64,000 nucleotides of DNA from an uncultured Actinomycetota bacterium (lineage in GTDB: Bacteria > Actinomycetota > Acidimicrobiia > Spongiisociales > UBA5794): assembly GCA_963700375.1 (NCBI GenBank), contig CAVOXF010000006.1, forward strand, positions 348,021 through 412,020. The letters run 5' to 3'. This document shows, piece after piece, positions 3,301 through 37,857 of the stretch. The translations under genes and the position numbers were made by a program. Below the pieces are notes generated by a model, which saw nothing but the letters and a program-made list of their open reading frames with translations, made no database searches and was not told the origin of the DNA. Each line of letters starts with the position of its first letter. The first letter of the stretch is position 1.

Positions 3301-3800
3301 CGGGCGACGAGGTCGTCGAACGGCACGTCGGTCCCCGTTGTCAGGCGAATGGGGTCGACGGGGGTCGAGCTGAGTCGTTGTGTCGCAGCCCGGACGGATG
3401 CGACGACGATAGCCGGTTCCCGGCTCGCGAGGGCATGACGGGCCACAATGCGATCGGCCATCGTCGAGATGCTCGGAGACACGTGCTCGAACGGCAGCGT
3501 CTCCCACGCCGGGAGATGGAATCCGTCGCAGGTGAAGAGCGCCAGATCCTCGGCAAGGTCCTCCGCCTCCCGTTCGCCCGGGACCACGGCGAGGATGCTG
3601 CGTCCGGTGCGTTCGGCGATTCCGGCGAGCACGACAGCCCGCAGCGCGGATGCCACGACGTAGCGTCCGGGGATCGGCGGAAGCTGGTCACGCCCGAAGC
3701 GTTCGAGTACGGAGGTAAGCGGAGCGACCACGAAGAGAGAGCGTACCGATCGGACCGGCCAACGCGTCAGCGCTCGATGAATCCCTCGCTCGCGAGCCAC
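383..3800 (-). CDS. mfd: Transcription-repair coupling factor Mfd, reading frame broken by an apparent single-base frameshift near 2610-2660
   Basis: The 414-aa ORF (2556..3800) carries the UvrB-like D1/D2 N-terminal domains. The 820-aa ORF (383..2845) carries D3/D4 (GDYVVHxxHGVGRF) and the superfamily-2 translocase motifs (GYGKTEVA, LLVIDEEQRFG, helicase C). The two frames differ by +1 and together total about 1139 aa, the normal Mfd length. The true start may be an internal GTG near 3740. Confidence 0.85.
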
Positions 3801-4795
3801 TCAACGGTTCGGCTCAGGGTCTCCCCGATCGGGGTGTAGACCATGCCGAGGTCCTCGATTGACCGGGTCACGTCGAAACGGTGACCGTGGAGCAGCGTTC
3901 GGAGCATCTCCACACAGATCGGGCGCTCCCGACCGAAAAGTCCAGCGACGGCAACCAGTGGGTACGCAGCAGCGGCCGCCCATCGGGGAAGCATCACAGG
4001 GTCGATGGGACGACCGATGACCTCGCCGAGTGTCGCAACAGCATCGCGAACGGTGATGCTCGCCCCGCTAACGAGGTACCTCGCCCCGTCTGCCCCGTGT
4101 TCGGCGGCCAGGAGGTGGGCCGAGGCACAGTCGTCTACGTCGACGATCGAGAGCGTGGTGTCGATCGCGACCACCCGCTTCGCGTTCAGCGCGAGCCGGA
4201 GAAGGAACGTCGACCCCCCGGACCGCCCAGGCCCCTGGACCGACGAAGGGTTGACGGCGACTGCCTCGATTCCGGTGCGTGCGGACTCCTCGAAGAACAC
4301 CTGTTCCCCGAGGTACTTCGATCGGGCGTAATGGGACAGAAAGCCCGGACCGTGCGGCGTCGACTCCGATGCGACCGTTCCCTCGGATTCGCCGATCGTG
4401 GCGGCCGATGACGTCAACACGATCCTGCGGACTCCTGCCTCGGATGCCGCGTCAACCACCGTTCGAACACCGTCGACGTTGGTTCGGTACATTGGCCCCG
4501 GGTCCGAAGGGCACATAGCGTTGACGCCTGCGACGTGGAAGACGATGTGGCAATCGGACATCCCTTCGAGCAAGGACGTCCGGTCTTCGACATCGCCGCG
4601 AACCGGGACCGCTCCCTTCGCTGCGAGTGCCCTCGCCGACTCAGCGGACCGGGCGAGCGCCCGCACGTTCGCTCCAGACTGCAGCAGTTGATCGAGAACG
4701 GCGCCTCCGACAAACCCGGACCCGCCGGTGACGAAGACCCCTGTGTGAGAGATCCCCGAGGCTGATGCCGCGAAGGTGACCTTCGCCGACCCCAC
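3767..4795 (-). CDS. NAD-dependent epimerase/dehydratase family (SDR) protein
   Basis: It has a Rossmann motif VFVTGGSGFVGG and the general epimerase/dehydratase architecture. The start is uncertain and may be internal. Confidence 0.7.
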   Translation of the reverse strand: MGSAKVTFAASASGISHTGVFVTGGSGFVGGAVLDQLLQSGANVRALARSAESARALAAKGAVPVRGDVEDRTSLLEGMSDCHIVFHVAGVNAMCPSDPGPMYRTNVDGVRTVVDAASEAGVRRIVLTSSAATIGESEGTVASESTPHGPGFLSHYARSKYLGEQVFFEESARTGIEAVAVNPSSVQGPGRSGGSTFLLRLALNAKRVVAIDTTLSIVDVDDCASAHLLAAEHGADGARYLVSGASITVRDAVATLGEVIGRPIDPVMLPRWAAAAAYPLVAVAGLFGRERPICVEMLRTLLHGHRFDVTRSIEDLGMVYTPIGETLSRTVEWLASEGFIER

Positions 4796-4798
4796 CGA

Positions 4799-5356
4799 CT
4801 AGTCCTTCGTGCGCGAGGTGGTGAACACCGAGCGGAACCGGGAGAAGTAATCGCCGGCGGATACGACCGTCACGATGACGGCCGCCGCCATGAACCACTC
4901 GTCGAGCCGCCACGGCCCGATGACGATGTCCAACCTGAGAATCGCGAGTGCGATAGCCGTGAACTGGAGAGCCGCCTTCGACTTGCCCCACATGCTCGGC
5001 GGCACCGTGGACGAATCCAGCGCGGCCACGCTACGCAGCCCCATGATTGCGACTTCCCTGGCAATGATGATGAATGCCACCCAGGTCGACACCGTCCCAA
5101 CCTCGACCAAGGCGATGAGCGCGCCGGTGACCAGGATCTTGTCCGCCACCGTGTCGAGGAAGGCCCCGAGCGTGCTGGTGAGCTGCCACCGGCGAGCAAG
5201 GTAGCCGTCGGCGAAGTCCGTGAGCGCTGCGATCACGAATACGACGGTCGCTGCGATCCGCGTCCCCTGACTATCGGTGCCCGTGAGGATGAGCGCCATG
5301 GCGACCGGCGTGAGGATCAGCCGGGCGATCGCGAGGAGGTTCGGAATCGACATCAC
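4799..5356 (-). CDS. pgsA: CDP-alcohol phosphatidyltransferase (phosphatidylglycerophosphate synthase-like)
   Basis: It has the motif DxxDGxxAR...G...D...D (DFADGYLARRWQLTSTLGAFLDTVADK) and multiple transmembrane segments. Confidence 0.75.
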   Translation of the reverse strand: MMSIPNLLAIARLILTPVAMALILTGTDSQGTRIAATVVFVIAALTDFADGYLARRWQLTSTLGAFLDTVADKILVTGALIALVEVGTVSTWVAFIIIAREVAIMGLRSVAALDSSTVPPSMWGKSKAALQFTAIALAILRLDIVIGPWRLDEWFMAAAVIVTVVSAGDYFSRFRSVFTTSRTKD

Positions 5357-5386: not shown

Positions 5387-6868
5387 CTACTCGACCCAAC
5401 CCATCGAACGCTCGACGGCCTTGCCCCAGTCCCTGCACCGAAGATCCCGCTCCCCCGGGTCCATCGAGGGCGTGAACGTCCGATCCTCAGCCCAGTGTGC
5501 CGCGATTTCGTCGAGGCTCTCCCAGAATCCGACGGCGAGACCGGCCGCGTATGCTGCTCCGAGCACCGTTGTCTCGCTGATCTTGGGTCGAACGACGTCG
5601 ACGTCGAGCACGTCGGCCTGGAACTGCATGAGGATGTCGTTGACGACCATGCCGCCGTCGACCTTCAGTTCGGTAAGTTCGATGCCGGCGTCCGCCTCCA
5701 TGGCCTCGAAGACATCCCTGCTCTGGAACGCGGTCGCCTCGAGGACGGCGCGGGCAAGGTGGCCCCGGTTGGCGTAGCGGGTGAGGCCGGTGACCACGCC
5801 ACGGGCATCGTCTCGCCACCACGGAGCGAACAACCCGGAGAAGGCTGGGACGAAGTAGACGCCGCCGTTGTCGTCAACCTCGGCGGCGAGCTCGCTGATC
5901 TGTTCGGCCGAGTCGATCATCCGAAGGTTGTCGCGCAACCATTGCACCCCGGCCCCTGCGATGGCGACAGACCCTTCGAGTGCGTATCGCGCCGGTGAGC
6001 CCGCGAGTTCGTATGCGACGGTGGTGAGCAGGCCGTTGTCCGACCGGACGATCTGTTCGCCGGTATTGAGCAGAAGGAAACATCCGGTGCCGTAGGTGTT
6101 CTTTGCCATGCCCGGTTCGAAACAGGCTTGGCCGAAGAGGGCAGCCTGTTGGTCACCGAGGATCCCAGCAAATGGGACGCCATCGAGCGGTTCCCGGCAC
6201 TCGGCAACGAATCCGGAAGACGGGACGATACGAGGAAGCACCGAGCGGGGTACTCCGATGGCTTCAAGCAATCCATCGTCCCACGCCAACGTCTCGAGGT
6301 CCATGAACATCGTTCGGCTGGCATTGGTGACGTCCGTGACGTGCTCCCCGGTCAGATTCCACGCGACCCACGAGTCCATGGTCCCGAAGGCCACTTCGCC
6401 GGTCTCGGCTCGCACCCGCACGTCCTCGTCGTTCTCAAGGAGCCAGCGGACCTTCGGGCCTGCAAAGTAGGTGGCGAGCGGCAGACCGGTCTGAGCGCGG
6501 AATCGGTCGGCCCCCTCGTCTCCGCCGAGACGCCGACACAGTTCGGCGGTTCGCACATCTTGCCAAACGATGGCGTTCCCGAGCGGCTCGCCGGTCTCCC
6601 GGGACCACAGCAGCGTGGTCTCGCGCTGGTTCGTGAGTCCGACGGCGACAAGGTCGTCCGGGCGTGCGCCGAGTTGGTCGAAGGCCTCTCGGATCACCAG
6701 GTCGACATTGCGGCGGATCTCCTGCGGATCGTGCTCGACCCACCCGGGCTGCGGATAGATCTGCTCGTGTTCGCGCTGGGCCATTGCAACGATCTGACCA
6801 TGGTGGTCGACCAGCGCACATCGAGAAGAGGTCGTCCCCTGATCTATTGCCGCTACGTACGAAGTCAT
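5387..6868 (-). CDS. glpK: Glycerol kinase
   Basis: It is a 493-aa FGGY kinase with the N-terminus [16 protein letters not shown] and glycerol kinase signature regions. Confidence 0.9.
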
Positions 6869-6879
6869 CGGCGCACCTT

Positions 6880-7455
6880 TCAGTTGTTCAGCGCTCCCGC
6901 CGTCTCGCGGGCCGCGGCGCCGCCGGCAGCGGCGAACACCTCGACCACGCGAACGCTTCGGATGACCGCGTCGTCGACCGAAGCCCGTTCGACCTTAGCG
7001 AATCGATCGAGCACGTAGTCCGCAGGATCAACCCGATCGGGAGGTCGACCAACACCGATCTTCAGGCGCCAGAATTCGTTGGTGCCAAGCGAGGCGGCGA
7101 TCGAGCGAATCCCATTGTGGCCACCGGTTCCGCCGCCGAACTGCACTTTCAGCTTGGCAAACGGAAGATCGATGTCGTCGTGCACGATCAGGAGGCGGTC
7201 GCCGTCCACGTGCTCGTATCGAACCAGCGGGGCGATTGCCTGGCCGCATTCGTTCATGAACGTGCGTGGCAGGGCGAAGACGATCCGGGTCTGATCGATT
7301 CGCGTCTCCGCAACGTCCGACCGGATTCCGAGCCGCGCCTTCTTGAACGTGAGATTCGGATCCGCCGCGACCACAACCTCGGCGCCAACGTTGTGGCGCG
7401 TGCCGTCGTAGCGGGAACCTGGATTCCGCAGTCCGACGATGAGCTTGGTGTCCAC
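6880..7455 (-). CDS. pth: Peptidyl-tRNA hydrolase
   Basis: It is 191 aa with the N-terminus [21 protein letters not shown]. Confidence 0.9.
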
Positions 7456-7464
7456 GAAGCGGAA

Positions 7465-8130
7465 CTAGCCCTCGTCGGACCCGTCCTCGCCGGACACAGC
7501 GCCTCCGCCCTCTTCGCCCTCTTCGCCCGCTTCGCCCTCGACGAGATCCTCGGGGGCCTCTTCTTCTGCGACGGACGGGAGGAGCACGGTCACAAGCGGA
7601 CGGTCAGCCTCGGTGATGTAGGTGACGCCTTCGAGGACCGGGAGGTCTTCGACCTTGAGCGTGTCCCCGATGCCGAGCTCGCTGATGTCGACCTCGATCG
7701 ACGTCGGAATGGCGGTCGGCAACGCGGAGAGCATCACGGCATTCTCGATCATCTCGATGAAGCCGCCCTCTTCCTTCACACCGCGCGGCGTACCGGTGAA
7801 CTCGAGCCCAACCTCGGCATCGATTGCGACGTCGAGCGAGACCTTGATGAAGTCCAGATGCATGATGTCACCACGCACGGGGTCTCGCTGCACCTCGCGA
7901 GCAACGGCGAGAATCTCGTTCCCGCCATCGATCTGAACGTTGATGAGGGCGTTGAGGCCGGCGTCGGTGTGCAGAGCGCCGTGCAATTCGCGGCGATCGA
8001 CGGCGATCTCCTCGGTCTCGATCCCAACGCCGTACACGACGGCCGGAATCTGCCCCTCACGGCGCATCCGACGCGCCGGACGGCTTCCCGATACGGTGCG
8101 CTTGAGAGCGCGCAAGGTCTCCTGTTGCAT
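7465..8130 (-). CDS. rplY: 50S ribosomal protein L25 (general stress protein Ctc form, acidic C-terminal tail)
   Basis: It has the L25 core (RREGQIPAVVYG...). The start is placed at the internal ATG (MQQETL); the upstream part of the ORF looks like a spurious extension. Confidence 0.85.
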   Translation of the reverse strand: MQQETLRALKRTVSGSRPARRMRREGQIPAVVYGVGIETEEIAVDRRELHGALHTDAGLNALINVQIDGGNEILAVAREVQRDPVRGDIMHLDFIKVSLDVAIDAEVGLEFTGTPRGVKEEGGFIEMIENAVMLSALPTAIPTSIEVDISELGIGDTLKVEDLPVLEGVTYITEADRPLVTVLLPSVAEEEAPEDLVEGEAGEEGEEGGGAVSGEDGSDEG

Positions 8131-8223
8131 GGCTGGGCTCCTCGAAGAATGCTGCCGAAGTCCCGCAAGTGTAGGGCGAGGAAGCGCACAAAGCACTTTG
8201 CGCAGCGTCTTCGGCCTCGCCGG

Positions 8224-11095: not shown

Positions 11096-11169
11096 ACGGG
11101 GTGGGTCAAGAGGTTAGACGGGGTGAGCGTGTTGCGAGCTGCGAGCAGGGCGAACCTGGACGCCGCACC

Positions 11170-27786: not shown

Positions 27787-28457
27787 GTGAGAGCCTCGCT
27801 GTGAGCCGCTTCCCGGAAGCGGGCAACCAGGTCCAGGTCCTTGCTGAACCCGCCGGCCCCCGATGGCCGATTGGTGCGAGTCAATGAATCAACGCCCCAC
27901 GGTCGGACCGCGGCGATCGCTGCCGCCACGTTTTCGGGGTCGAGTCCGCCGGCGAGGATCACCGGCACGCCCACGGCTTCGACGATGGCGGCGCTCACAT
28001 CCCAGTCGTGGACAACGCCCGCTGCGCCGATGCCGGGGATATCGGGTGCGACCGAGTCGAGGATCAGATAGTCGACCACCTGTTCGTACGACCGGGCGAC
28101 GTCGACCGCCTCCGGTCCCGTCACCGCGATCGCCTGCATCACGGCGATGTCCGGCAGCGCGAGTCGCAGGTCGGCGACTGCATCAGGGCCAACCGCGCCG
28201 GACGCCCCACAGAGATGCAGGACATCGGGCTTCACCGTGCGGACCATGTGCTCGATCGCTCGCAGGTCGACCTCCACGCTGAGTGCCACCGATGTCGCAA
28301 TCCCCCCGAGCGATGCGCAGATGTCCTTCGCGAGGTCCAGAGCGATCTCGCCGGGCAGCCCGGTGGCGGCGGGGGTCACGCCCACGTGGTCGACACCGAG
28401 GCCGGCAACCGCCAGAGCCTCATCGACCGACTGCATCGTGTAGACCTGAACCCTCAC
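27783..28457 (-). CDS. Phosphoribosylanthranilate isomerase (TrpF)-like TIM-barrel protein lacking the catalytic Cys
   Basis: It has VHLCGASG and ILAGGLDPENVAAAIAAVRPWGVDS regions matching TrpF. The position of the conserved KICGiT Cys is occupied by VYTMQS. It overlaps the kinase with ATGA. Confidence 0.65.
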   Translation of the reverse strand: MRVQVYTMQSVDEALAVAGLGVDHVGVTPAATGLPGEIALDLAKDICASLGGIATSVALSVEVDLRAIEHMVRTVKPDVLHLCGASGAVGPDAVADLRLALPDIAVMQAIAVTGPEAVDVARSYEQVVDYLILDSVAPDIPGIGAAGVVHDWDVSAAIVEAVGVPVILAGGLDPENVAAAIAAVRPWGVDSLTRTNRPSGAGGFSKDLDLVARFREAAHSEALT

Positions 28458-28590
28458 GGACCCTCCATGTCTGCCCGGACGGTAGTGGAGTGTCCGAAAA
28501 TGGATGTGCCGAACGATCGGTGGAGGTTCGCGGTCGGTCGCCGGCCACCAGTCGTCAGTCGCGCGCCGCCGGGTTGGAATACGCGGTAGG

Positions 28591-28667
28591 CCTCATCTTG
28601 GTGGTTCAAGCTCCCGGAGGCCCTCCTGTCAACCGGCCTCCTCTTGGTGGTACAAGCTCCCAGGCGC
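28591..28667. promoter_or_regulatory. Two copies of a 30-nt direct repeat (26/30 identical) flanking an 11-bp palindrome GGAGGcCCTCC, in the sulfatase/TrpF-like intergenic region
   Basis: The copies are cctcAtcttggtggtTcaagctcccGgagg (28591-28620) and cctcCtcttggtggtAcaagctcccAggcg (28638-28667). A perfect 10-bp hairpin gcggattcgc-gga-gcgaatccgc lies at 28674-28696. Confidence 0.3.
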
Positions 28668-28732
28668 CCCCCTGCGGATTCGCGGAGCGAATCCGCGTCC
28701 CCCACCCTCCGGGCGGGGGGACAGGGGACCGC

Positions 28733-30142
28733 CTAGGTACCGGGGTAGGGGGCGTCGCCAACTTCTCGTTGAAGCCGGGCCAGTTCGGCCGAGAGTTCGG
28801 CCCGGATCTTCTGGTATTCCGGGTCGTCGATCACGTTGTTGACCTCGAGCGGATCTGTGACCAGGTCGTACAACTCCCACTCAATCGGATCGACAGGACC
28901 GTGGGCGCCCAGCTGTCCGAGCGGATCGTTGTAGTAGCAGATGAGCTTGTGGGTATTCGTACGCACCCCGTAGTGCGCCGGGCAGTTGTGGGCCGAATCT
29001 CGATGCATCCAGTAGCGGTAGTACATCGACTCGGGCCAGTCGTCGGGCGTGTCGCCTTCGAGGATCGGAGCGAACGATCGGCCCTGGACGTGTTCGGGGA
29101 TCTCGACCCCCATGAGGGCGAGCAGCGTTGGGCCGAAGTCGACGTTCACCACGATGTCGTCGCTGATCGAGCCAGGAGCAATCCGATTCGGGTACTGCAT
29201 GAGGAGCGGCATGCGGAGCGACTCCTCGAACATGAGCCGCTTGTCGAACCATCCGTGATCGCCGAGGAAGAACCCCTGGTCGGATGTGTAGACAACGATG
29301 GTGTTGTCGATCAGTCCGCATTCATCGAGGTGGTCCAAGAGTCGTCCGACGCTCTCATCCACAGCGGCGATGACACCGAGGTATCGCCGCATGTACCGCT
29401 GGTAGCGCCACGCGATCTCCTCGTCCTCGGTCAGTCCCTCTGGCACCACCGCGTTGAGATCGGTGATGGGGTCGAGATCCATCATGTGCATCCGCATCGC
29501 CTTGATCACGTCGGAGCGACCGTTGAGATCATCCCGCAGCGTGTAGGGCTCGGGGATATCGACGTCGTCGTACATCGTGAAATGCCGGGCCGCCGGTTCC
29601 CACGTTCGGTGTGGCGCTTTGTGGTGGCAGAAGAGCGCGAACGGCCGGTCTGCGTGGTCGTCGATGAATTCGATCGAGTCGTCGGTGATGAGGTCGGTGA
29701 CGTATCCGCCGCGCTCGACGATGCGACCGCCCTCTTCGATCATCACGGGATTGTGATAGTGCCCCTGACCGGGGAGCACCCGCCAGAAGTCGAAGCCGAC
29801 GGGATCATGGTTCGGACCGTGCCCCAGGTGCCATTTACCGATGAGGCCCGTCGCGTACCCGGCGTCCTGGAGAGCCTGAGGGAATGTCCAGAGGCTGTTG
29901 TCGAGTGGTGTATCAAGCGTCGTGACGCTATTCACGTGGTTGTACGTGCCCGTGAGGATCGCCGCACGGCTGGGCGTACAAATGCCGTTCGTGCAGAACG
30001 CCGAGTCCATGCGGATCCCGTTGTCGGCGATGCGATCGAGGTTCGGCGTCTGATTGACGCGGCTTCCATATGCCGAGATTGCGTGCGCCGCATGGTCGTC
30101 GGTCAGGATGAACAACAGGTTCGGTCGGGCGTTCATGTTCAT
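28733..30142 (-). CDS. Sulfatase (formylglycine-dependent arylsulfatase family), cytoplasmic
   Basis: It has the CTPSRAAILTG (C-x-P-x-R) signature and a GKWHLG motif. There is no signal peptide. The start is placed at MNMNARPNLLFILTDDH. Confidence 0.85.
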   Translation of the reverse strand: MNMNARPNLLFILTDDHAAHAISAYGSRVNQTPNLDRIADNGIRMDSAFCTNGICTPSRAAILTGTYNHVNSVTTLDTPLDNSLWTFPQALQDAGYATGLIGKWHLGHGPNHDPVGFDFWRVLPGQGHYHNPVMIEEGGRIVERGGYVTDLITDDSIEFIDDHADRPFALFCHHKAPHRTWEPAARHFTMYDDVDIPEPYTLRDDLNGRSDVIKAMRMHMMDLDPITDLNAVVPEGLTEDEEIAWRYQRYMRRYLGVIAAVDESVGRLLDHLDECGLIDNTIVVYTSDQGFFLGDHGWFDKRLMFEESLRMPLLMQYPNRIAPGSISDDIVVNVDFGPTLLALMGVEIPEHVQGRSFAPILEGDTPDDWPESMYYRYWMHRDSAHNCPAHYGVRTNTHKLICYYNDPLGQLGAHGPVDPIEWELYDLVTDPLEVNNVIDDPEYQKIRAELSAELARLQREVGDAPYPGT

Positions 30143-30465
30143 GCGGTCGCGATTCTCTTCACCATGGGTCCACGTTAGGTCGATGCGGAGCCTCGATGGC
30201 CTGGTCGGGATCCTGCTCACCATGCCAGTTCCGGGGATCGACGCCGACGGGCCGGCGTTGAGGGAACCCGGTTCGTTGCGCCGCTGCATGAACCGATAGT
30301 CAGCCCATGGACAGCTCGAGTCTCGAACTCAAGGGCGTAGGTCCTGCGACTGCGGAACTGCTCGCCGAGGCAGGAACGTGTCGGCCGAAAGGACGACACC
30401 GAGGAGACGAGATTCGAGGCCGGACAGGGCTCGAATCGAAGCCGACCGTTCACAGCCAAGTGCCC

Positions 30466-30542
30466 TGGTGGAGGTGAGGGGATTTGAACCCCTGACCCCT
30501 ACGTTGCGAACGTAGTGCTCTGCCGAACTGAGCTACACCCCC
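30466..30542 (-). tRNA. tRNA-Ala (anticodon CGC)
   Basis: It folds as a cloverleaf by hand with a G3:U70 identity pair. The anticodon loop is UUCGCAA and the T-loop is TTCAAAT. CCA is encoded. Confidence 0.85.
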
Positions 30543-30619
30543 GGACGGTCCGGGAGTGTATCAGGAGGTCGCCGTCATCGGTACCCGAGGTTGCGGCCAA
30601 AGGATCGACCAGCGGCCGG

Positions 30620-31246
30620 TCAGACACTGCCGAGTTGGGACCGCAGGCGCTCCTGGACGACAGCCGTTGTGAGGTCCGAACGGCTGCGCTCGATCAGCGA
30701 CCGGGCCACATCGGTCGTTCGGCGGAGGCCGGCGGTCATCCCATCGGGGTAGTCGAGCGATGTCAGCAAGTCGAGAACCGTTTCCATCGCCACGAACATC
30801 GCTTCGGCATCGCCGATCTTCCCGGCGCGCAGGAAATCGAGCATTCGCCTCCGCTGCTCGCCGATGGCCTCTCCCAAACCCTTGAGATACGGAACCGAAT
30901 GAACACCGATGTCGACCGGCAACGGAAGGGGTTGACCGGCCAGCAGAGCCGAGGTGAGCACTCCTTCTGCATACTCCTTGACCGCGTCGTAGAAGAATCC
31001 GGCGTGGTAGATGTCCTGGTGGGCGATCAACGACGCCTCGGCCTCCGCAATCAGCGCCCGGGCCTCGGCAAGCAGGACCTGCGCCTCCTCCCGCTCCCCT
31101 CGATGAAGCGCCCGGATGGCGTTGGCCGACGTGCGAATGATCAACCGGCAGTTCTTGAGCGCAAGCTCGCGTGCGGCGTTCTTCTGATCGAGGTCGGCGC
31201 GTACCGCCACTTCGATGGCGGTGAGGTCGGGTCGGGCGGCTTCCAC
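30620..31246 (-). CDS. Translin-family-like alpha-helical protein (tentative)
   Basis: It is 208 aa and all-helical. Its YLKGLGEAIGEQRRRM region resembles the translin/TRAX motif YLxGLxDLTGELxR. I cannot confirm the assignment without a profile search. Confidence 0.35.
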   Translation of the reverse strand: MEAARPDLTAIEVAVRADLDQKNAARELALKNCRLIIRTSANAIRALHRGEREEAQVLLAEARALIAEAEASLIAHQDIYHAGFFYDAVKEYAEGVLTSALLAGQPLPLPVDIGVHSVPYLKGLGEAIGEQRRRMLDFLRAGKIGDAEAMFVAMETVLDLLTSLDYPDGMTAGLRRTTDVARSLIERSRSDLTTAVVQERLRSQLGSV

Positions 31247-31250
31247 CGTC

Positions 31251-31724
31251 TCAGCCGGCTATGACCCGGACCGTCGGCGGAGCCGATTCGAAATCGAGAT
31301 CGGCTGCGGTAGTCGGTGCATCGAGAATCGATGTCTGGATCGGGACAACCGGAGCACGACGGACGGCGTTGGGCTGTTTCGCCGACAGCAGCATCGCCAC
31401 GTAGACACCGACGGCGAGGTCGACGGCGATCGTGATCCCGAGCCAGAGCATGCTCGACTGCACAACGGCAATCACAAGGGTGGCGAGCGCTGTGGCCAAC
31501 AGGACGATGAAGATGCGCTGCCGACGCCGCTCGGCATGGTGTTGGGCATACGCCGGACTCCCGACCTGCGCCGCCGTGATGCTCGCCAACTTCTCCTTCG
31601 AACGCGCGAACGCACGGGTCGTCGCCCGTGGGTTTTCACGTCGATGATCGAAGAAGGAGGGAAGCAAGAACGCTGCCCAACCGCCCGCGATCAGTATGAA
31701 AAAGATGATTTCCATCAGGTGCAC
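31251..31724 (-). CDS. Hypothetical membrane protein (2 predicted TM helices)
   Basis: It has hydrophobic segments IIFFILIAGGWAAFLL and IFIVLLATALATLVIAVV. It lies 4 nt upstream of the translin-like gene. Confidence 0.4.
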   Translation of the reverse strand: MHLMEIIFFILIAGGWAAFLLPSFFDHRRENPRATTRAFARSKEKLASITAAQVGSPAYAQHHAERRRQRIFIVLLATALATLVIAVVQSSMLWLGITIAVDLAVGVYVAMLLSAKQPNAVRRAPVVPIQTSILDAPTTAADLDFESAPPTVRVIAG

Positions 31725-31789
31725 TCCGCCGTTGCGCCGAGCGTAGGCTCGTGCCGCGCGGCCTCAAAGCACTGTTGCTGCCCGACCAC

Positions 31790-32278
31790 TCACACATTGT
31801 GGTCCGAAGTACCACGTACTAGCAACTCAATTCCGTGCGAGAGCGCCGGCAGGACCACCGCAAGCGACTCCTGAACGCCCTTGACCGAACCTGGAAGATT
31901 GACGATGAGCGTGGCCCCGACCGTCCCTGCGACCCCTCTCGACAGCATGCCATGCGGGTTTTCCCCGAAGGTCGCGGAGCGCATCGCCTCGGCGAGGCCG
32001 GGTGCCTCGCGCTCGAGAACCGCCTTCGTCCCCTCGGGCGTCAGGTCGCGTGGTGTGAGCCCCGTGCCACCGGTCGTCAGGATCAGGTCGACGGTCCCGG
32101 CGATCTCCGACAGCGTGGTTGCGACCGACTCGACGCCGTCGGGAATCACCCGATACTCGAGCACCTCGAGGCCGATCGATTCGAGCAGAGCGATGGCCGC
32201 AGGTCCCGACCGGTCCTCCGCAGACCCTTGCGAAACGCGGTCGGAAACCGTCACGACCGCGGCGGTTCGCTCACTCAC
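31790..32278 (-). CDS. mogA: Molybdenum cofactor biosynthesis protein MogA/MoaB
   Basis: It has the signature LILTTGGTGLTPRDLTPE. A GTG start is chosen because it overlaps the moaC stop (GTGAGTGA). Confidence 0.8.
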   Translation of the reverse strand: MSERTAAVVTVSDRVSQGSAEDRSGPAAIALLESIGLEVLEYRVIPDGVESVATTLSEIAGTVDLILTTGGTGLTPRDLTPEGTKAVLEREAPGLAEAMRSATFGENPHGMLSRGVAGTVGATLIVNLPGSVKGVQESLAVVLPALSHGIELLVRGTSDHNV

Positions 32279-32744
32279 GGCGCCACTCCCCCGACCGCCC
32301 GCCGGACTTCTCGAGGAGGCGAACCGATCCAATCTGTGATCCCCGGTCGACACCCTTGATCATGTCGTAGAGCGCCACGGCTCCGACTGCGGCGCCGGTC
32401 ATGGCCTCCATCTCAACACCCGTCTTGGCGGTCACGGTCGCGGTGACCGTGATCACGGCACCGTCGTGCGCCGGTTCGATCGCAACCGAGACCGACTCGA
32501 TCGGCAACGGATGACACAAGGGAACGAGCGCTGAGGTCTGCTTCGCCCCTTGGATGGCTGCGATCCGCACGGTCGCAACCGCGTCGCCTTTCGGAAGGTC
32601 ATCAGCAAACAATCTCTCCCTGGTCGACGCAGCCATCAACACGGTCGCTTCGGCCACGGCTCGGCGCGCGGTCGGCGTCTTCTCCCCGACATCGACCATC
32701 CGGACGTTCCCCGCCTCGTCTATGTGGGTGAGTTCATCGGTCAC
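32271..32744 (-). CDS. moaC: Cyclic pyranopterin monophosphate synthase MoaC
   Basis: It is 157 aa with MoaC conserved regions (MVDVGEKTPT..., ALVPLCHPLPI). Confidence 0.9.
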   Translation of the reverse strand: MTDELTHIDEAGNVRMVDVGEKTPTARRAVAEATVLMAASTRERLFADDLPKGDAVATVRIAAIQGAKQTSALVPLCHPLPIESVSVAIEPAHDGAVITVTATVTAKTGVEMEAMTGAAVGAVALYDMIKGVDRGSQIGSVRLLEKSGGRSGEWRRE

Positions 32745-33978
32745 CGAGTGCCTCCTTGCGGGTCCGCATTTCCGGCCAGTGAATCATCTCGAGCTCCACG
32801 CTACCGCCGGGCTCGACGCGTCCGACACCTACCGGCACCACGGCGAGGGCATCGGCAAAGGCCAGCGCCGACAGGACGTTCGACGACTGGCCTCCGGACA
32901 GGCGGGCGTGCCACACCCCGTCGCTGTCACGTTCGGTGCTGACCCGGACGAACACATTCTTCTCCGGGTTCGTATCGATCCCCGGATCGAGAACGCCCGC
33001 TACCCGATCCCGGAAGACCCGCTCGGCCCCCATCATGGTGAGGAGCGCCGGCCGCATGAACTGCTCGAACGAGACGAACACGGAGACCGGGTTGCCGGGA
33101 AGTCCGAAAAAGGGAATGCCGTCGACGGTGCCAAACCCGAACGGCTTGCCCGGCTGTATCGCGATCTTCCAGAAGTCAACCGTGCCGCGTTCACGGAGAG
33201 TCAGCTTCACCACGTCGTATGCCCCCATCGACACGCCACCGCTCGTCACCACCACATCGGCGTCGTGGACCGCGTCGTCGAGCGCGGCTTCGAAAGACCC
33301 CGGCGTGTCGGTGACGATGCCGTAGTCCCGCACGTCCGCGCCGAGTTCGTGGAGGAGTCCATGCAGCAGGGTGCGGTTGGAATCGCGGATCGCACCCGGT
33401 TGCAGGATCTGGGTCGACGGCGGAACCAACTCGTCCCCGGTCGACATGACGGCGACGATAGGCCGGTGCCGAACGAAGGGACGGACGCCCATCGATGCCA
33501 TGACCGAGGCGTGGGGCGCCCGCAGCCGCAGCCCGGCATTGAAGACCAGGGTTCCGGCCCGCACGCTTCCACCGGTCGGACGTATGTGGTCGCCGGCCGC
33601 CGCCGCCTCGAGGATCCGGACCCGGTCGTCGCCGACCGGCACGGTCGCCTCGACCGGCACGATGGCATCGGCCCCAACGGGGATCGGAGCACCGGTCATG
33701 ACCCGTGCTGCCGTACCGGGGGTGACTTCGGCGGTTGGGATCGACCCCGCGGCAACGTCGTCGACGACGATGAGGTCAGCGGGCGGTTGGGAGACGTCGG
33801 CGGACAGGACAGCGAAGCCGTCCATCGCCGAGTTCTCAAAACCGGGAAGGTCTTCGGGAGCGATGACGGCGCCGGCGAGGACGGCGCCGGCGGCTTCCTC
33901 AAAGTCGACCTCGGCCGGCACGAGCAGCGGGACGGAATCCAGAACCTCGGCCTGCATCTCTGCGAGCGGACGCATCAT
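32734..33978 (-). CDS. moeA: Molybdopterin molybdenumtransferase MoeA
   Basis: It has MoeA N- and C-terminal domains (SGGVSMGAYD, GLPGNPVS). The start is at MMRPLAEMQ and overlaps the plsY stop with ATGA. Confidence 0.85.
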   Translation of the reverse strand: MMRPLAEMQAEVLDSVPLLVPAEVDFEEAAGAVLAGAVIAPEDLPGFENSAMDGFAVLSADVSQPPADLIVVDDVAAGSIPTAEVTPGTAARVMTGAPIPVGADAIVPVEATVPVGDDRVRILEAAAAGDHIRPTGGSVRAGTLVFNAGLRLRAPHASVMASMGVRPFVRHRPIVAVMSTGDELVPPSTQILQPGAIRDSNRTLLHGLLHELGADVRDYGIVTDTPGSFEAALDDAVHDADVVVTSGGVSMGAYDVVKLTLRERGTVDFWKIAIQPGKPFGFGTVDGIPFFGLPGNPVSVFVSFEQFMRPALLTMMGAERVFRDRVAGVLDPGIDTNPEKNVFVRVSTERDSDGVWHARLSGGQSSNVLSALAFADALAVVPVGVGRVEPGGSVELEMIHWPEMRTRKEALGDR

Positions 33979-34577
33979 CCCGATACCGTTCGCTCGGAGC
34001 CGGCCGCCAGGCGCTTGATGTTCGGCACGTGCCGGGCGATCACCAGCACCGTGATGGCACCGGCCCAGGCGAGCGCCCAGCCTCGATAGCCGGAGATCGC
34101 GAGACCGGGGACGTACAGCACCATGGCACCGAGCGAGGCGATCGACGCCACCTTGAAGACGAGCGTTACGACAAGCCACGCGACGGCAAGGATCAGGCCA
34201 AACAGCGGGGCGAGGTAGACGGCGGCGCCGATAGCGGTGGCAACCCCCTTCCCCCCTCGGAAGCGGTGCCAGATCGGTGCGATGTGGCCGAGCACGGCGG
34301 CAAATGCGCACGCAACGGCAAGCGTCTCCGGTGTGACCGGGCCGCTGACCGATCCGGCCCACATGGATCCGATCGCTGCCGCCGCCGCACCCTTGACGGC
34401 GTCGCCGAGCAGCACCAGGGCGGCCGGGCCCTTGCCGAGGGAGCGCAGAACGTTTGAGGTGCCGGGGTTCCCGCTGCCGACGGTGTAGATGTCGACGCCG
34501 AGGAGCTTCGGCACGATGACCCCGAAGTCGATCGAGCCGATGAGATATGCGATCGCGAGGGGTATCAGAACGTCCAC
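33975..34577 (-). CDS. plsY: Glycerol-3-phosphate acyltransferase PlsY
   Basis: It has AYLIGSIDFG and GSGNPGTSN motifs. The start is probably GTG (VDVLIPL). The long N-terminal ORF extension is rejected. Confidence 0.8.
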   Translation of the reverse strand: MDVLIPLAIAYLIGSIDFGVIVPKLLGVDIYTVGSGNPGTSNVLRSLGKGPAALVLLGDAVKGAAAAAIGSMWAGSVSGPVTPETLAVACAFAAVLGHIAPIWHRFRGGKGVATAIGAAVYLAPLFGLILAVAWLVVTLVFKVASIASLGAMVLYVPGLAISGYRGWALAWAGAITVLVIARHVPNIKRLAAGSERTVSG

Positions 34578-34727
34578 CAGAGGAAGTTTATGCGGCCAAT
34601 GGAGCGAAGCTGCTTCCGCATTGCGCTCCAACGCGCAACAATGGGACCGACCCCTTCTCGCGGACAACCGAACGCAGGCCCCCCACCATTCCCCCTGCTT
34701 GCGTAAGGCGACCGCGGGGAGGGGTCG

Positions 34728-35294
34728 TTGATCGAACACCTTCCATCGCCCGTGCTCGGTCGATACCTTCAACGGGTGTTCTGGCTGATACGCCCTCCCT
34801 ACCTCCGATGGGTGGCCGCAGCAGCGGTCGTGCTCGCCGCTCTTCTGTGGGATCTCAAGGGCCGTGCCGAGTCTCCCTATCCGTTCGCCGCCAGTGAGAT
34901 CGCCGCCGGGACACCGATCACGGATTCAATGGTCGAGTGGCGCAACCTGCCTGACGGAGCCATGGCACTCCCTGACCTCAGCCGCCCCGTTGCGGCGAGA
35001 GACCTTCCGGCCGGTGAGCCGATCGTGCCTTCCGCCGTGTCGGAGACGACCGTGATACCTGACGGGTGGTGGTCCGTTCCCGTGCCGCTGTCGGCGGTGG
35101 CCGTCGCCGGGACCCCCGTACGTCTCATCGACACCGCATCAGGGATCGAGTCGGACGGCATCGTGGTCGCGGCCGGCACCGACGACCTGATGTCAATCGA
35201 CACATCGGGTATGGTCGCCGTCCCGCCGGAGACTGCCACCGCCGTCGCGATCGCGGCGAGAGAAGGATCCCTGGTCGTGCTCCTTGTGCCATGA
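34728..35294 (+). CDS. SAF-domain protein (CpaB/RcpC-like), N-terminal TM anchor
   Basis: It has a TM segment followed by IAAGTPITDSMVEWRNLP, a SAF-type beta region. It lies 21 nt upstream of uppP. Confidence 0.55.
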   Translation: MIEHLPSPVLGRYLQRVFWLIRPPYLRWVAAAAVVLAALLWDLKGRAESPYPFAASEIAAGTPITDSMVEWRNLPDGAMALPDLSRPVAARDLPAGEPIVPSAVSETTVIPDGWWSVPVPLSAVAVAGTPVRLIDTASGIESDGIVVAAGTDDLMSIDTSGMVAVPPETATAVAIAAREGSLVVLLVP

Positions 35295-35315
35295 CAGTCT
35301 CCTAGTCTCACGGCC

Positions 35316-36074
35316 ATGCTGAACGCCATCCTGTGGGGAGCGATCCAGGGCCTCACCGAATTCCTCCCGATCTCATCGAGCGGACACCTCGTGCTGATCC
35401 CGGCCCTGTTGGGGCGCGACGGGCCCGATCTCGCAACATCGGCGATGCTCCACCTCGGGACGCTGGTCGCCGTTCTCGTCTACTTCCGCACGGACCTCGC
35501 CCGCATGGCCCGGTTCGACCGTGCCGGCCGAAGAACGATCACCATCATCGCGATCGGGACGATCCCGGCCGTCATCCTCGGCCTCGCGTTCGAAAGCAAA
35601 CTCGACGAACTCACCGAACGGCCGACGGTGGTGGCGGCGATGCTGATCCTCACCGGGGTCATCCTCATGGCGACGATGCTGCTCCGCCCTGGAGACAAGC
35701 CCATCGAAGAACTCAGCCCGACCGACTCCGCGATCATCGGCTTCGCTCAGTCGTTCGCCCTGATCCCGGGGATCTCTCGTTCCGGAATGACGATCTCTGG
35801 CGGCCTGGTGCGGGGGATGTCGAGAGTCGACGCAGCCCGGTTCGCGTTCCTCCTCGGCATTCCGGTGATCGCCGGTGCCGGCCTCCTCTCCGTGGCGAAG
35901 GCCATCTCCGACGGAGAGGGCATCACGGCGTCCACCCTGGCCGGCATGGCGGTCGCCGCGATCACGGGCTACTGGGCGATCGCGTTCCTTCTCCGCGTGA
36001 TAGCCAAGGCGGGACTGGCCCCGTTCGGGATCTACTGCATCGCATTCGGGGTGGTGGCGCTGGTGCTTCTCTAG
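35316..36074 (+). CDS. uppP: Undecaprenyl-diphosphate phosphatase
   Basis: It is a BacA/UppP with N-terminus MLNAILWGAIQGLTEFLPISSSGHL and multiple TM helices. Confidence 0.9.
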   Translation: MLNAILWGAIQGLTEFLPISSSGHLVLIPALLGRDGPDLATSAMLHLGTLVAVLVYFRTDLARMARFDRAGRRTITIIAIGTIPAVILGLAFESKLDELTERPTVVAAMLILTGVILMATMLLRPGDKPIEELSPTDSAIIGFAQSFALIPGISRSGMTISGGLVRGMSRVDAARFAFLLGIPVIAGAGLLSVAKAISDGEGITASTLAGMAVAAITGYWAIAFLLRVIAKAGLAPFGIYCIAFGVVALVLL

Positions 36075-36189
36075 GTCGCCAGTTGCCAGTCGCCAGTCGC
36101 CGGAAGGACCAGATGCCGGTACATGATCGACTGAGGCGCCGCTCGAGCAGAACGACGCAGCAGACGGCGTATCGCTCCCGGTGACTGGA

Positions 36190-36220
36190 GACCGGGGACT
36201 GCCGACCGGGGACTGCCGAC
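36190..36220. repeat. Short tandem repeat (gaccggggactgcc x2.2) and nearby gccagt hexamer repeats (36066-36093) in a convergent intergenic region
   Basis: Both repeats are visible directly in the sequence. Confidence 0.5.
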
Positions 36221-36222
36221 TC

Positions 36223-37857
36223 TCAACCCCCGTACGCGCTGCTCATTCTCAGTTGTTCAGCGATGTGCACGTTGACGAGGGCGGGGACACCACTCTCCTG
36301 GGCCCGTTCGAGCGCAGGCCGGAGCTGTGCGGCGTCCTGCACGAACTCGCCGTAGCCGCCGAGCCCTTCGACCACGAGGTCGTAGCGCCGGACTCCGAGA
36401 TCTGAAGCGACGAGGCGGTCGGGATACAGCATCCGATGGATCGACTTGATGTTGTTCCATGCGCCGTCGTTCCCGACGACGCCGACCACCGGCATCCCGT
36501 GACGAACCAGCGAATCGAACTCCATCCCGTTGAACCCGAACGATCCGTCGCCGAACACGATGCCCACTCGTGTATCGGGTTCGACGGCCTTCGCCGCGAG
36601 GGCGAAAGGCGCTCCAATGCCGAGACAACCGAACGGGCCGGGGTCGAGGAGGCCACCGGGCCGACTCGTCCGAAGCCACTTGGCGGTGGTCGAAACGATG
36701 TCGCCACCATCGGCAGCGACGATGGTGTCGTCACCGAAGAAGTCGGCGACCTCACGCGCAAACCGTTCGGCATGCACCGGGCCACCACCGAGCGCCGCCA
36801 GTTCGTCTGCAACCGCCTGCTTCATCCGCTCGATGCCTGCGATCTGCTCGACCCAGGCGTCGCGTCCTGTGCCCTCGACGCGGTCCGCGAGCTGAGCGGC
36901 CACGGCGCCCGGATCGGCGACCACACCGATCGACGCGGCCCGGTTCCATCCGACCCGGGATGGCTCGGCGTCGACCTGGATCACGGCGGCGTTCGGAGCG
37001 ACCTGCTTCCCGAATCCGGTCCGAAAGTCCCAGTCAACCCCGAGAGCCAGGACCACATCGGCCGAGCGGAGGGCATCTGATCGAGTTCGATTACCGAGGA
37101 GCGGATGATCCCAACGCAGCGACCCGCGAGCGAGGCTGTTGAGGTAGACGGGGGCCTGCATCGCGTCGACGAGTCCGTTGATGGCCCCGATCGGATCACT
37201 GAAACGACTCCAGCGGTAGCCGGTGCCGGCAAACACCACAGGCCGCTTGGCGCGATTGAGTCGATCGACGACTTCCGTGAGCGTGTCATCGTCGAAGGCG
37301 GCCGGCCGGTCCGACCGGTAGCCGGACGGCCATCCAATTGAGTCCTCCTCGACCATCCCGGCCTGAACATCCCAGGGGATGTCGAGGAACACCGGGCCAC
37401 CGCGGCCCGCGAACGCATACCGGGCGGCGGTCGCGATGTACTCAGGTAGCCGGGCGGTCTCGTGCGCGGTGCCCGCCCACTTGGTGATCGAGTGGAACAT
37501 CCTCGGGTGGTCCATCTCCTGTAGGCCGCCGCGCAAGTCCTCCGTTGTGAGGTGCCTCCCACCGATGAGCAGCACCGGACTGTTCGCGAACCAGGCGTTC
37601 GCTATCCCGGTGATCGTATCGGTGACGCCGGGGCCGGCTGTTGAGAGAACGACCCCGAGGCGGCCGGTCAGCCGTGCGTACGCGTCGGCCGCATGGGCTG
37701 CGGCCTGCTCGTGCCGCACGTCGACGACGCGGATCCCCTCGTCGACGCACCCGTCGATGATCGGAAGGATGTGACCACCGGTCAGGACGAATACGGCGTC
37801 GACGCCCTCCGCCCGCAGCGCCCTCGCGATCGCCCGTCCGCCGTGGATCTTCGCCAT
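36223..37857 (-). CDS. Thiamine pyrophosphate-dependent enzyme (acetolactate synthase large-subunit-like)
   Basis: It has TPP_enzyme N, M and C regions (GPGVTDTITGIANA; GDGSFGFN...NDGAWNNI). The start is at MAKIHGG, giving about 544 aa. Confidence 0.8.
   Translation of the reverse strand: MAKIHGGRAIARALRAEGVDAVFVLTGGHILPIIDGCVDEGIRVVDVRHEQAAAHAADAYARLTGRLGVVLSTAGPGVTDTITGIANAWFANSPVLLIGGRHLTTEDLRGGLQEMDHPRMFHSITKWAGTAHETARLPEYIATAARYAFAGRGGPVFLDIPWDVQAGMVEEDSIGWPSGYRSDRPAAFDDDTLTEVVDRLNRAKRPVVFAGTGYRWSRFSDPIGAINGLVDAMQAPVYLNSLARGSLRWDHPLLGNRTRSDALRSADVVLALGVDWDFRTGFGKQVAPNAAVIQVDAEPSRVGWNRAASIGVVADPGAVAAQLADRVEGTGRDAWVEQIAGIERMKQAVADELAALGGGPVHAERFAREVADFFGDDTIVAADGGDIVSTTAKWLRTSRPGGLLDPGPFGCLGIGAPFALAAKAVEPDTRVGIVFGDGSFGFNGMEFDSLVRHGMPVVGVVGNDGAWNNIKSIHRMLYPDRLVASDLGVRRYDLVVEGLGGYGEFVQDAAQLRPALERAQESGVPALVNVHIAEQLRMSSAYGG

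Follow-up and report, generated by a model that had tools for sequence, protein, structure and literature searches.

A bacterial TRAX-like protein, likely a C3PO-type nuclease, at the end of a conserved gene block in Acidimicrobiia

The locus and the 208-amino-acid protein

The DNA analyzed here is a 64-kb stretch (hereafter the window; GC content 65%) of contig CAVOXF010000006.1, from an uncultured Actinomycetota bacterium of the class Acidimicrobiia. Its minus strand carries plsY, moeA, moaC and mog/moaB, a small membrane-protein gene, a gene for a 208-amino-acid (aa) protein and finally a gene for tRNA-Ala with the anticodon CGC (Table 1). The 208-aa protein is, judging from its sequence and predicted structure, a bacterial member of the translin/TRAX superfamily, and it is closer to the archaeal homo-oligomeric C3PO enzymes (AfTRAX, NeTRAX) than to translin. 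An earlier note, made from the letters of this DNA, had suspected such a protein here and had asked whether its position next to a tRNA gene was a functional clue. In what follows, the labels L003 to L091 denote related loci from other genomes and P-numbers denote proteins of relatives.

A phmmer search of the PDB sequences matched AfTRAX of Archaeoglobus fulgidus (3zc1, 3zc0) over residues 16–206 (E = 6e-20) and Nanoarchaeum NEQ131 (NeC3PO) at E = 0.009. An AlphaFold2 model of the single chain, built with 21 homologs as input, consists of seven helices without strands (mean predicted local distance difference test 89.2, predicted template modeling score 0.81), as the all-helical description in the earlier note had anticipated. 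Foldseek against the PDB ranked AfC3PO first (template modeling score, TM, 0.82–0.90; root-mean-square deviation ~2 Å; 32–33% identity), followed by NeC3PO (TM 0.72–0.82), chains J, K and L of human C3PO (3pja) and then translins, human TRAX and translin scoring TM 0.6–0.8. Ranks 1 to 44 belong to the translin/TRAX family throughout and unrelated helical repeats start at rank 45. The suspected family membership is therefore borne out by sequence and by the structural comparison that had been proposed for it. Homologs with 62–87% identity occur in 80 species-level genomes, where the order of the genes is unchanged, so the open reading frame is not a chance one, and many relatives are labeled "translin" by the Joint Genome Institute.

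The likeness to AfTRAX/AfC3PO (PDB 3ZC0, 3ZC1) covers the full-length alignment, the seven-helix fold, the size of ~200 aa, the acidic metal ligands and the GE..RR helix. No second translin-like gene was found within the window, and a single paralog is in keeping with a homo-oligomer. The two differ in the bacterial host, in the replacement of Af D114 by Glu126 and in the placement of the gene after a putative GlpR/SepX-like gene and before tRNA-Ala. NeTRAX/NeC3PO of Nanoarchaeum equitans (PDB 5JR9, 5JRC, 5JRE) shares the fold, the catalytic tetrad and an arginine (R124, here R133) at ~18% identity; it cleaves single- and double-stranded RNA and DNA in vitro. Eukaryotic C3PO, a translin–TRAX hetero-octamer (PDB 3PJA), belongs to the same superfamily and has the same fold, the window protein being nearer its catalytic TRAX chains. 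However, identity is 12–18%, the eukaryotic assembly is heteromeric (6:2) and takes part in RNA interference (RNAi) and in the clearance of pre-tRNA fragments, and a separate translin partner is not evident for the window protein.

Table 1. Positions of the features at the locus, in window coordinates (all on the minus strand).
Feature	Position	Strand	Basis and details
TRAX/C3PO-like gene	30620..31246	(-)	Open reading frame list; GTG start, 208 aa
Small, putatively GlpR/SepX-like membrane protein gene	31251..31724	(-)	Open reading frame list; 157 aa; stop 4 nt before the TRAX-like GTG
tRNA-Ala, anticodon CGC	30466..30542	(-)	ARAGORN
Catalytic helix motif YLKGLGEAIGEQRRRM, residues 120-135, bearing E126, E130, R133	30842..30889	(-)	Alignment
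First acidic pair E91 + E94 (KEYAEG), equivalent of NeC3PO E82/E85	30965..30976	(-)	Alignment
TACACT, a -10-like hexamer of the putative tRNA promoter, 12 nt from the tRNA 5' end	30555..30560	(-)	Sequence and locus comparison
mog/moaB	31790-32353	(-)	Pfam and NCBIfam matches
moaC	32271-32744	(-)	Pfam and NCBIfam matches
moeA/glp-like	32734-34362	(-)	Pfam and NCBIfam matches; true start further downstream
plsY	33975-34772	(-)	Pfam and NCBIfam matches; true start further downstream
Conserved upstream block (mog/moaB, moaC, moeA/glp-like, plsY) as a whole	31790..34772	(-)	Order repeated in ~80 loci

Active site and distribution of the family

Catalysis by C3PO depends on four acidic residues, which are E82, E85, D117 and E121 in NeC3PO and E123, E126, D193 and E197 in human TRAX, AfC3PO D114 corresponding to NeC3PO D117 (PMC5100593). 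NeC3PO R124 touches the substrate, and D114 of the Archaeoglobus enzyme and D117, E121 and R124 of the Nanoarchaeum enzyme are metal or substrate ligands (PMC5100593). In the phmmer alignments, E91, E94, E126 and E130 of the window protein fall on the four acidic residues of NeC3PO in that order and R133 falls on R124, while E126 is aligned with AfTRAX D114. The segment that the earlier note had likened to the translin/TRAX motif, YLKGLGEAIGEQRRRM, is the catalytic helix itself, and it is aligned to GFADAVGELRR of AfTRAX and to GIGDIAGEILRK of NeC3PO. All five residues are invariant among 21 close homologs. Across 102 sequences (101 representative clusters of the wider family and the query), E91, E94 and E130 are each found in 101, R133 in all 102, and position 126 is acidic without exception (E in 79, D in 23). 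The TRAX-type catalytic tetrad (Glu, Glu, Asp, Glu), which is the mark of the nuclease subunit, is thus present with Glu for Asp at the third position. Because the tetrad and R133 are kept, the 208-aa protein resembles the nuclease subunit TRAX and not the non-catalytic translin.

By analogy with its characterized relatives, the protein is likely to be an active, C3PO-like metal-dependent nuclease. Following the archaeal enzymes, it would most likely assemble into a hollow oligomer, with E91, E94, E126 and E130 inside the cavity binding two Mg2+/Mn2+ ions. Short RNA, and possibly DNA, would be cut endonucleolytically within this cavity, and the role of the enzyme may be a housekeeping clean-up of nucleic acids.

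Concerning distribution, a whole-database search returned 3230 proteins at E ≤ 1e-3, an exhaustive search of representatives gave 1464 clusters at 50% identity (784 of them below 1e-10), and a profile built from diverse members reached 6288 proteins at E ≤ 1e-5, the named profile matches lying in Chloroflexota, Dehalococcoidia, Anaerolineae and Armatimonadota. In a set of species-representative genomes, 239 fit the Acidimicrobiia-type peptide patterns, and the best 80 of these 239 are nearly all labeled Acidimicrobiia or Actinomycetota; the relatives of the window are Acidimicrobiia metagenome-assembled genomes throughout. The bacterial TRAX-like family is restricted to few phyla, yet common inside those phyla, and the earlier description of translin-family proteins as rare in bacteria holds for the number of phyla but not for the frequency within them. 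A survey by Gupta, Kale and Kumar (2012), as it is cited in PMC5100593, found Chloroflexi to be the only bacterial phylum with the translin superfamily. Structural and biochemical work on C3PO/TRAX nucleases covers eukaryotes and two archaea; our literature search found no study of a bacterial member and no paper placing the TRAX-like family in Actinobacteria. The present locus places a well-conserved and, by analogy, probably active TRAX-like enzyme in the Actinomycetota, class Acidimicrobiia, and could offer a compact single-subunit bacterial system for the role of C3PO-type nucleases outside RNAi.

For the genomic context in other phyla, seven loci retrieved one by one and 80 metagenome loci from the Chloroflexota-type clade were examined. 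The Chloroflexi translin-superfamily proteins are the closest relatives outside Acidimicrobiia (45–57% identity, same catalytic residues), but they are encoded in a different block, namely (MnmA), RNase HII, UPF0102/YraN, Zn_ribbon_8, ThiD2/ThiE, TRAX-like, H+-pyrophosphatase and a metallo-beta-lactamase-fold protein or GlyRS, lacking a GlpR-like gene or tRNA. ThiE lies immediately upstream of the TRAX-like gene in 36 of 63 such loci and the H+-pyrophosphatase immediately downstream in 16 of 60. Within an RNase HII–YraN–ThiE block, the gene at 2808–3737 of L088 (P0136, 309 aa) joins the TRAX-like domain to a C-terminal HRDC domain, which is nucleic-acid-binding. In an Armatimonadota metagenome-assembled genome (L091), the TRAX-like gene (1359–2012) and the beginning of a CCA-adding enzyme/poly(A) polymerase gene (1978–3330; PolyA_pol and HD domains) share 35 nt, which is a single case. 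P0179 (409 aa) bears ~200 extra N-terminal residues before its TRAX-like region (206–393). An archaeal TRAX-SepRS operon has also been described (PMC5424206). The HRDC fusion, the CCA-enzyme overlap and this operon make a general role in RNA or tRNA metabolism plausible, without singling out tRNA-Ala. The HRDC fusion, the RNase HII–YraN setting and the CCA-enzyme overlap are also scattered hints in favor of the nuclease reading.

The Acidimicrobiia gene block and its membrane-protein member

The order plsY, moeA, moaC, mog/moaB, small membrane protein and TRAX-like gene is repeated in essentially all of the 80 Acidimicrobiia loci, and the protein-coding part of this conserved block ends with the TRAX-like gene. 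In most of 81 loci, a TRAX start codon comes 0–13 nt after the stop codon of the membrane-protein gene. The most frequent gap is 4 nt, which is also the gap that the earlier note had read in the window; one operon with translational coupling is therefore indicated. In 72 loci holding all five genes, the TRAX-like protein has the highest mean identity of the block (72.6%), followed by MoaC (67.7%), Mog (66.4%), PlsY (60.9%, present in 61 of the 72), MoeA (56.7%) and the membrane protein (50.8%).

The 157-aa membrane protein was previously taken to have two transmembrane segments, but hydropathy gives three hydrophobic segments (1–26, ~68–91 and ~95–116). The divisome proteins GlpR and SepX of Actinobacteria span the membrane with three helices and are encoded near the MoeA paralog Glp (PMC10522489; PMC8748795). 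The window protein resembles them in its three hydrophobic segments, its proximity to moeA and weak profile matches: all four NCBIfam SepX_GlpR models match it (E from 7.6e-8 to 9e-4), and the precomputed match to PF28211 (GlpR) is marked faint or weak. Its best score, however, is 32.5 bits against a cutoff of 160, its orthologs elsewhere likewise stay under the SepX_GlpR cutoffs, and it is much shorter, with linkers of ~40 residues as opposed to the disordered region IDR1 of Corynebacterium glutamicum GlpR (residues 27–218). The moeA gene three genes upstream scores 355.8 bits with the Glp_gephyrin model (cutoff 475) and 353.5 bits with the E. coli-type MoeA model, both under the cutoffs. Located beside moaC and mog, the window MoeA could be an undifferentiated MoeA/Glp. 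On these sequence matches, a GlpR/SepX-like assignment for the 157-aa protein is plausible but not proven.

An alternative to a housekeeping role is that the nuclease serves as the dedicated partner of this putative divisome protein, for instance being recruited to the septum and acting on nucleic acid during division. The coupling described above would agree with it, as would the survival of the pairing at 57% identity in L084, where mog is missing, the company of the envelope genes plsY and uppP around the whole block, and the established divisome role of three-transmembrane GlpR/SepX proteins. We consider it unlikely nevertheless, since the GlpR assignment falls so far under its cutoff and the disordered linkers are so short, the neighboring MoeA is not separable as Glp or ordinary MoeA, and no GlpR-like gene was found in the examined Chloroflexota and Armatimonadota loci, whose homologs (45–57% identity) have the same catalytic residues. 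The lineage-wide tight coupling to the GlpR/SepX-like gene is still a more interesting unexplained feature than the tRNA, and its strictness makes it a concrete lead for testing.

In 19 related loci an additional open reading frame of 72–89 aa, with the Zn-ribbon-like motif CPxC...CxNGHxHP(D/E)RVGFD(I/L)EW, lies between the TRAX-like stop codon and the tRNA promoter; among them are L008 (5617–5835), L022 (5631–5849), L003, L004, L006, L009–L014, L027, L067, L069, L071, L076 and L077. Either its start is separated from the TRAX stop by 4 nt, or the two overlap (TGATG in L004). Its occurrence is patchy, with a 20-aa remnant in L020; it matched no Pfam family and was not found in the window.

The adjacent tRNA-Ala gene and the competing readings

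The tRNA-Ala(cgc) gene of the window encodes a G3:U70 pair and a CCA end, as read from the sequence, and is therefore an ordinary tRNA-Ala. An Rfam scan of positions 28000–37000 found no riboswitch and no small RNA, the sole relevant match being this tRNA as a sub-threshold transfer-messenger RNA (tmRNA; 42.4 bits, gathering score 47). A tmRNA at 30466–30542 (-) was rejected, the match reflecting clan overlap with the tRNA-Ala-like domain of tmRNA, and in 12 related loci the Rfam scan returned the tRNA alone.

Between the TRAX-like stop codon and the tRNA 5' end lie 77 nt, close to the ~80 nt on the same strand first reported. Of the loci reaching far enough, ~90% (66 loci) have a tRNA-Ala(cgc) past the TRAX-like gene on the same strand, including the 57%-identity relative in L084. 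The distance varies from 15 to 1958 nt, being 15–30 nt in 15 loci, with unrelated open reading frames inserted in some genomes, and the tRNA is missing, beside an intact TRAX-like gene, from six Acidimicrobiia loci whose downstream sequence extends for at least 1 kb. The proposed survey of the gene pair thus confirmed the adjacency within Acidimicrobiia but not beyond, as 88 loci from other phyla (452 kb) contain no tRNA-Ala and a single tRNA in all, namely a tRNA-Ser that lies 2 kb from the homolog and on the other strand.

Comparison of the loci revealed a conserved -10-like box in front of the tRNA. Of 66 distinct upstream sequences, 65 have TAnnnT ending 9–14 nt (mode 12) before the mature 5' end, with TACACT in 41 and TACAAT in 10; in shuffled sequences the count averaged 4.1 and never exceeded 10. 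A G two bases upstream in 52 of the 65 extends the box to GnTAnnnT, which we take to be the actinobacterial -10 form, and the motif is still present where the stop codon is only 15–30 nt from the tRNA. It emerged from the locus comparison alone; a sigma-70 consensus scan of 30300–32500 detected no promoter- or terminator-like sites, such a scan being uninformative for high-GC actinobacterial promoters. The same layout is seen at the other tRNA of the window, the unrelated tRNA-Gln(ttg) at 11096–11120 (-), with TAACCT 14 nt upstream of the 5' end. In L044, L045, L064 and L068, the stretch from the TRAX stop to the tRNA promoter contains a long conserved inverted repeat (ggcgtcccagaacgg...ccggtt..gacgcc), which may be a regulatory hairpin or a terminator that lacks a U-tract.

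As judged from this motif, tRNA-Ala(CGC) is transcribed as a unit of its own, from a putative -10 promoter. The genes past the tRNA are not conserved. In L084, tRNA-Ala(cgc) (6699–6773) is followed by a tyrosine integrase (7018–8187) and IS110 transposases, which suggests that the tRNA is an integration site and the edge of the conserved block there. The variable genes together with this integrase are typical of a tRNA at a synteny boundary. Given its own apparent promoter, the variable spacing, the tRNA-less loci and the block boundary, the adjacency is more likely to be inherited gene order than a functional unit, and it is best explained by a conserved gene order beside an independently transcribed tRNA. 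The tRNA-Ala marks the end of the block and is not evidently a dedicated substrate or a co-transcribed partner.

The contrary view, close to the one first raised, ties the nuclease to tRNA-Ala through co-transcription, the enzyme processing or clearing the precursor or its 5' leader. It can draw on the frequency of the adjacency even at 57% identity, on the shortest spacings, on the terminator-like site that was sought and not found between gene and tRNA, on the degradation of 5' pre-tRNA fragments by Neurospora C3PO (PMC5100593), on the archaeal TRAX-SepRS operon and on the Armatimonadota overlap with a CCA-adding enzyme gene. Yet the -10 box persists at the shortest gaps, the distance is variable and interrupted by unrelated genes, the TRAX-like gene stays intact where the tRNA is missing, the adjacency does not extend to other phyla, and the region beyond the tRNA looks like a synteny-block boundary. 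We therefore hold a tie to tRNA-Ala to be quite improbable, and co-transcription finds no support as a functional clue.

To the preferred explanation as a whole, namely a TRAX-like C3PO nuclease encoded by the last gene of the block, with the tRNA as a separate unit, we assign a probability of about 0.7. Several observations count against it. The 208-aa protein itself has no match to PF01997 (Translin) at E ≤ 1 in a direct Pfam scan, and it scores under every NCBIfam cutoff, the best model (PRK14562.1-5) giving 213 bits (E = 2.8e-63) under its cutoff of 291 bits. The M2-site Asp of the solved archaeal and eukaryotic enzymes is Glu here, which is a conservative change. The tight coupling to the GlpR-like gene could mean a specific role that the word "housekeeping" misses. 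The -10 box is a motif and not a mapped transcription start, and the spacer RNA between stop codon and tRNA is no more stable than shuffled sequences (z = +0.94), so that, with no terminator found, some read-through into the tRNA may occur. Regarding the first of these points, the profile check turned out negative for the protein but positive for 54 of 68 diverse relatives (33–57% identity; best E = 2.8e-12), and the miss does not refute membership because the PDB sequence search, the fold search and the relatives all back it.

A more daring proposal is that, in Acidimicrobiia, a C3PO-type nuclease would have become part of the actinobacterial Glp/GlpR (SepX) division module. Its translation would be coupled to that of the membrane receptor and, in some genomes, of the small Zn-ribbon protein, and its targets would lie at the septum or among the transcripts of the locus, including read-through pre-tRNA-Ala. 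If true, bacterial division would be physically linked to RNA/DNA cleavage, but we see little likelihood in it.

Next to no chance is left for a haloacid dehalogenase (HAD) superfamily hydrolase or another helical family (PhoU, DUF47, YfdX), although these proteins go under the name "haloacid dehalogenase (superfamily protein)" both in NCBI records and in the NCBIfam PRK14562 models and the direct Pfam scan of the 208-aa protein gave weak matches, which are only noise, to YfdX (E = 0.017) and DUF1771 (E = 0.12). HAD enzymes have an alpha/beta Rossmann-like fold. A HAD identity was rejected, as both the Rossmann-like core and a HAD Pfam match are missing from the protein, whose model is all-helical and C3PO-like, and the PhoU and YfdX readings were rejected on fold and sequence results. 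PhoU and DUF47, which had been named at the outset as possible competitors, gained no support: PhoU has no match in the protein and weak ones in 2 of 68 relatives (best E = 0.0054), and DUF47 is not among the reported Pfam matches of the protein or its relatives. Since the fold is all-helical and no HAD profile matches, the NCBI name is a misnomer, and its correction is useful by itself. In L086 a true HAD-family hydrolase gene (4186–4884) is located 13 nt downstream of the TRAX-like gene; that adjacency of this type gave rise to the misnomer is speculation.

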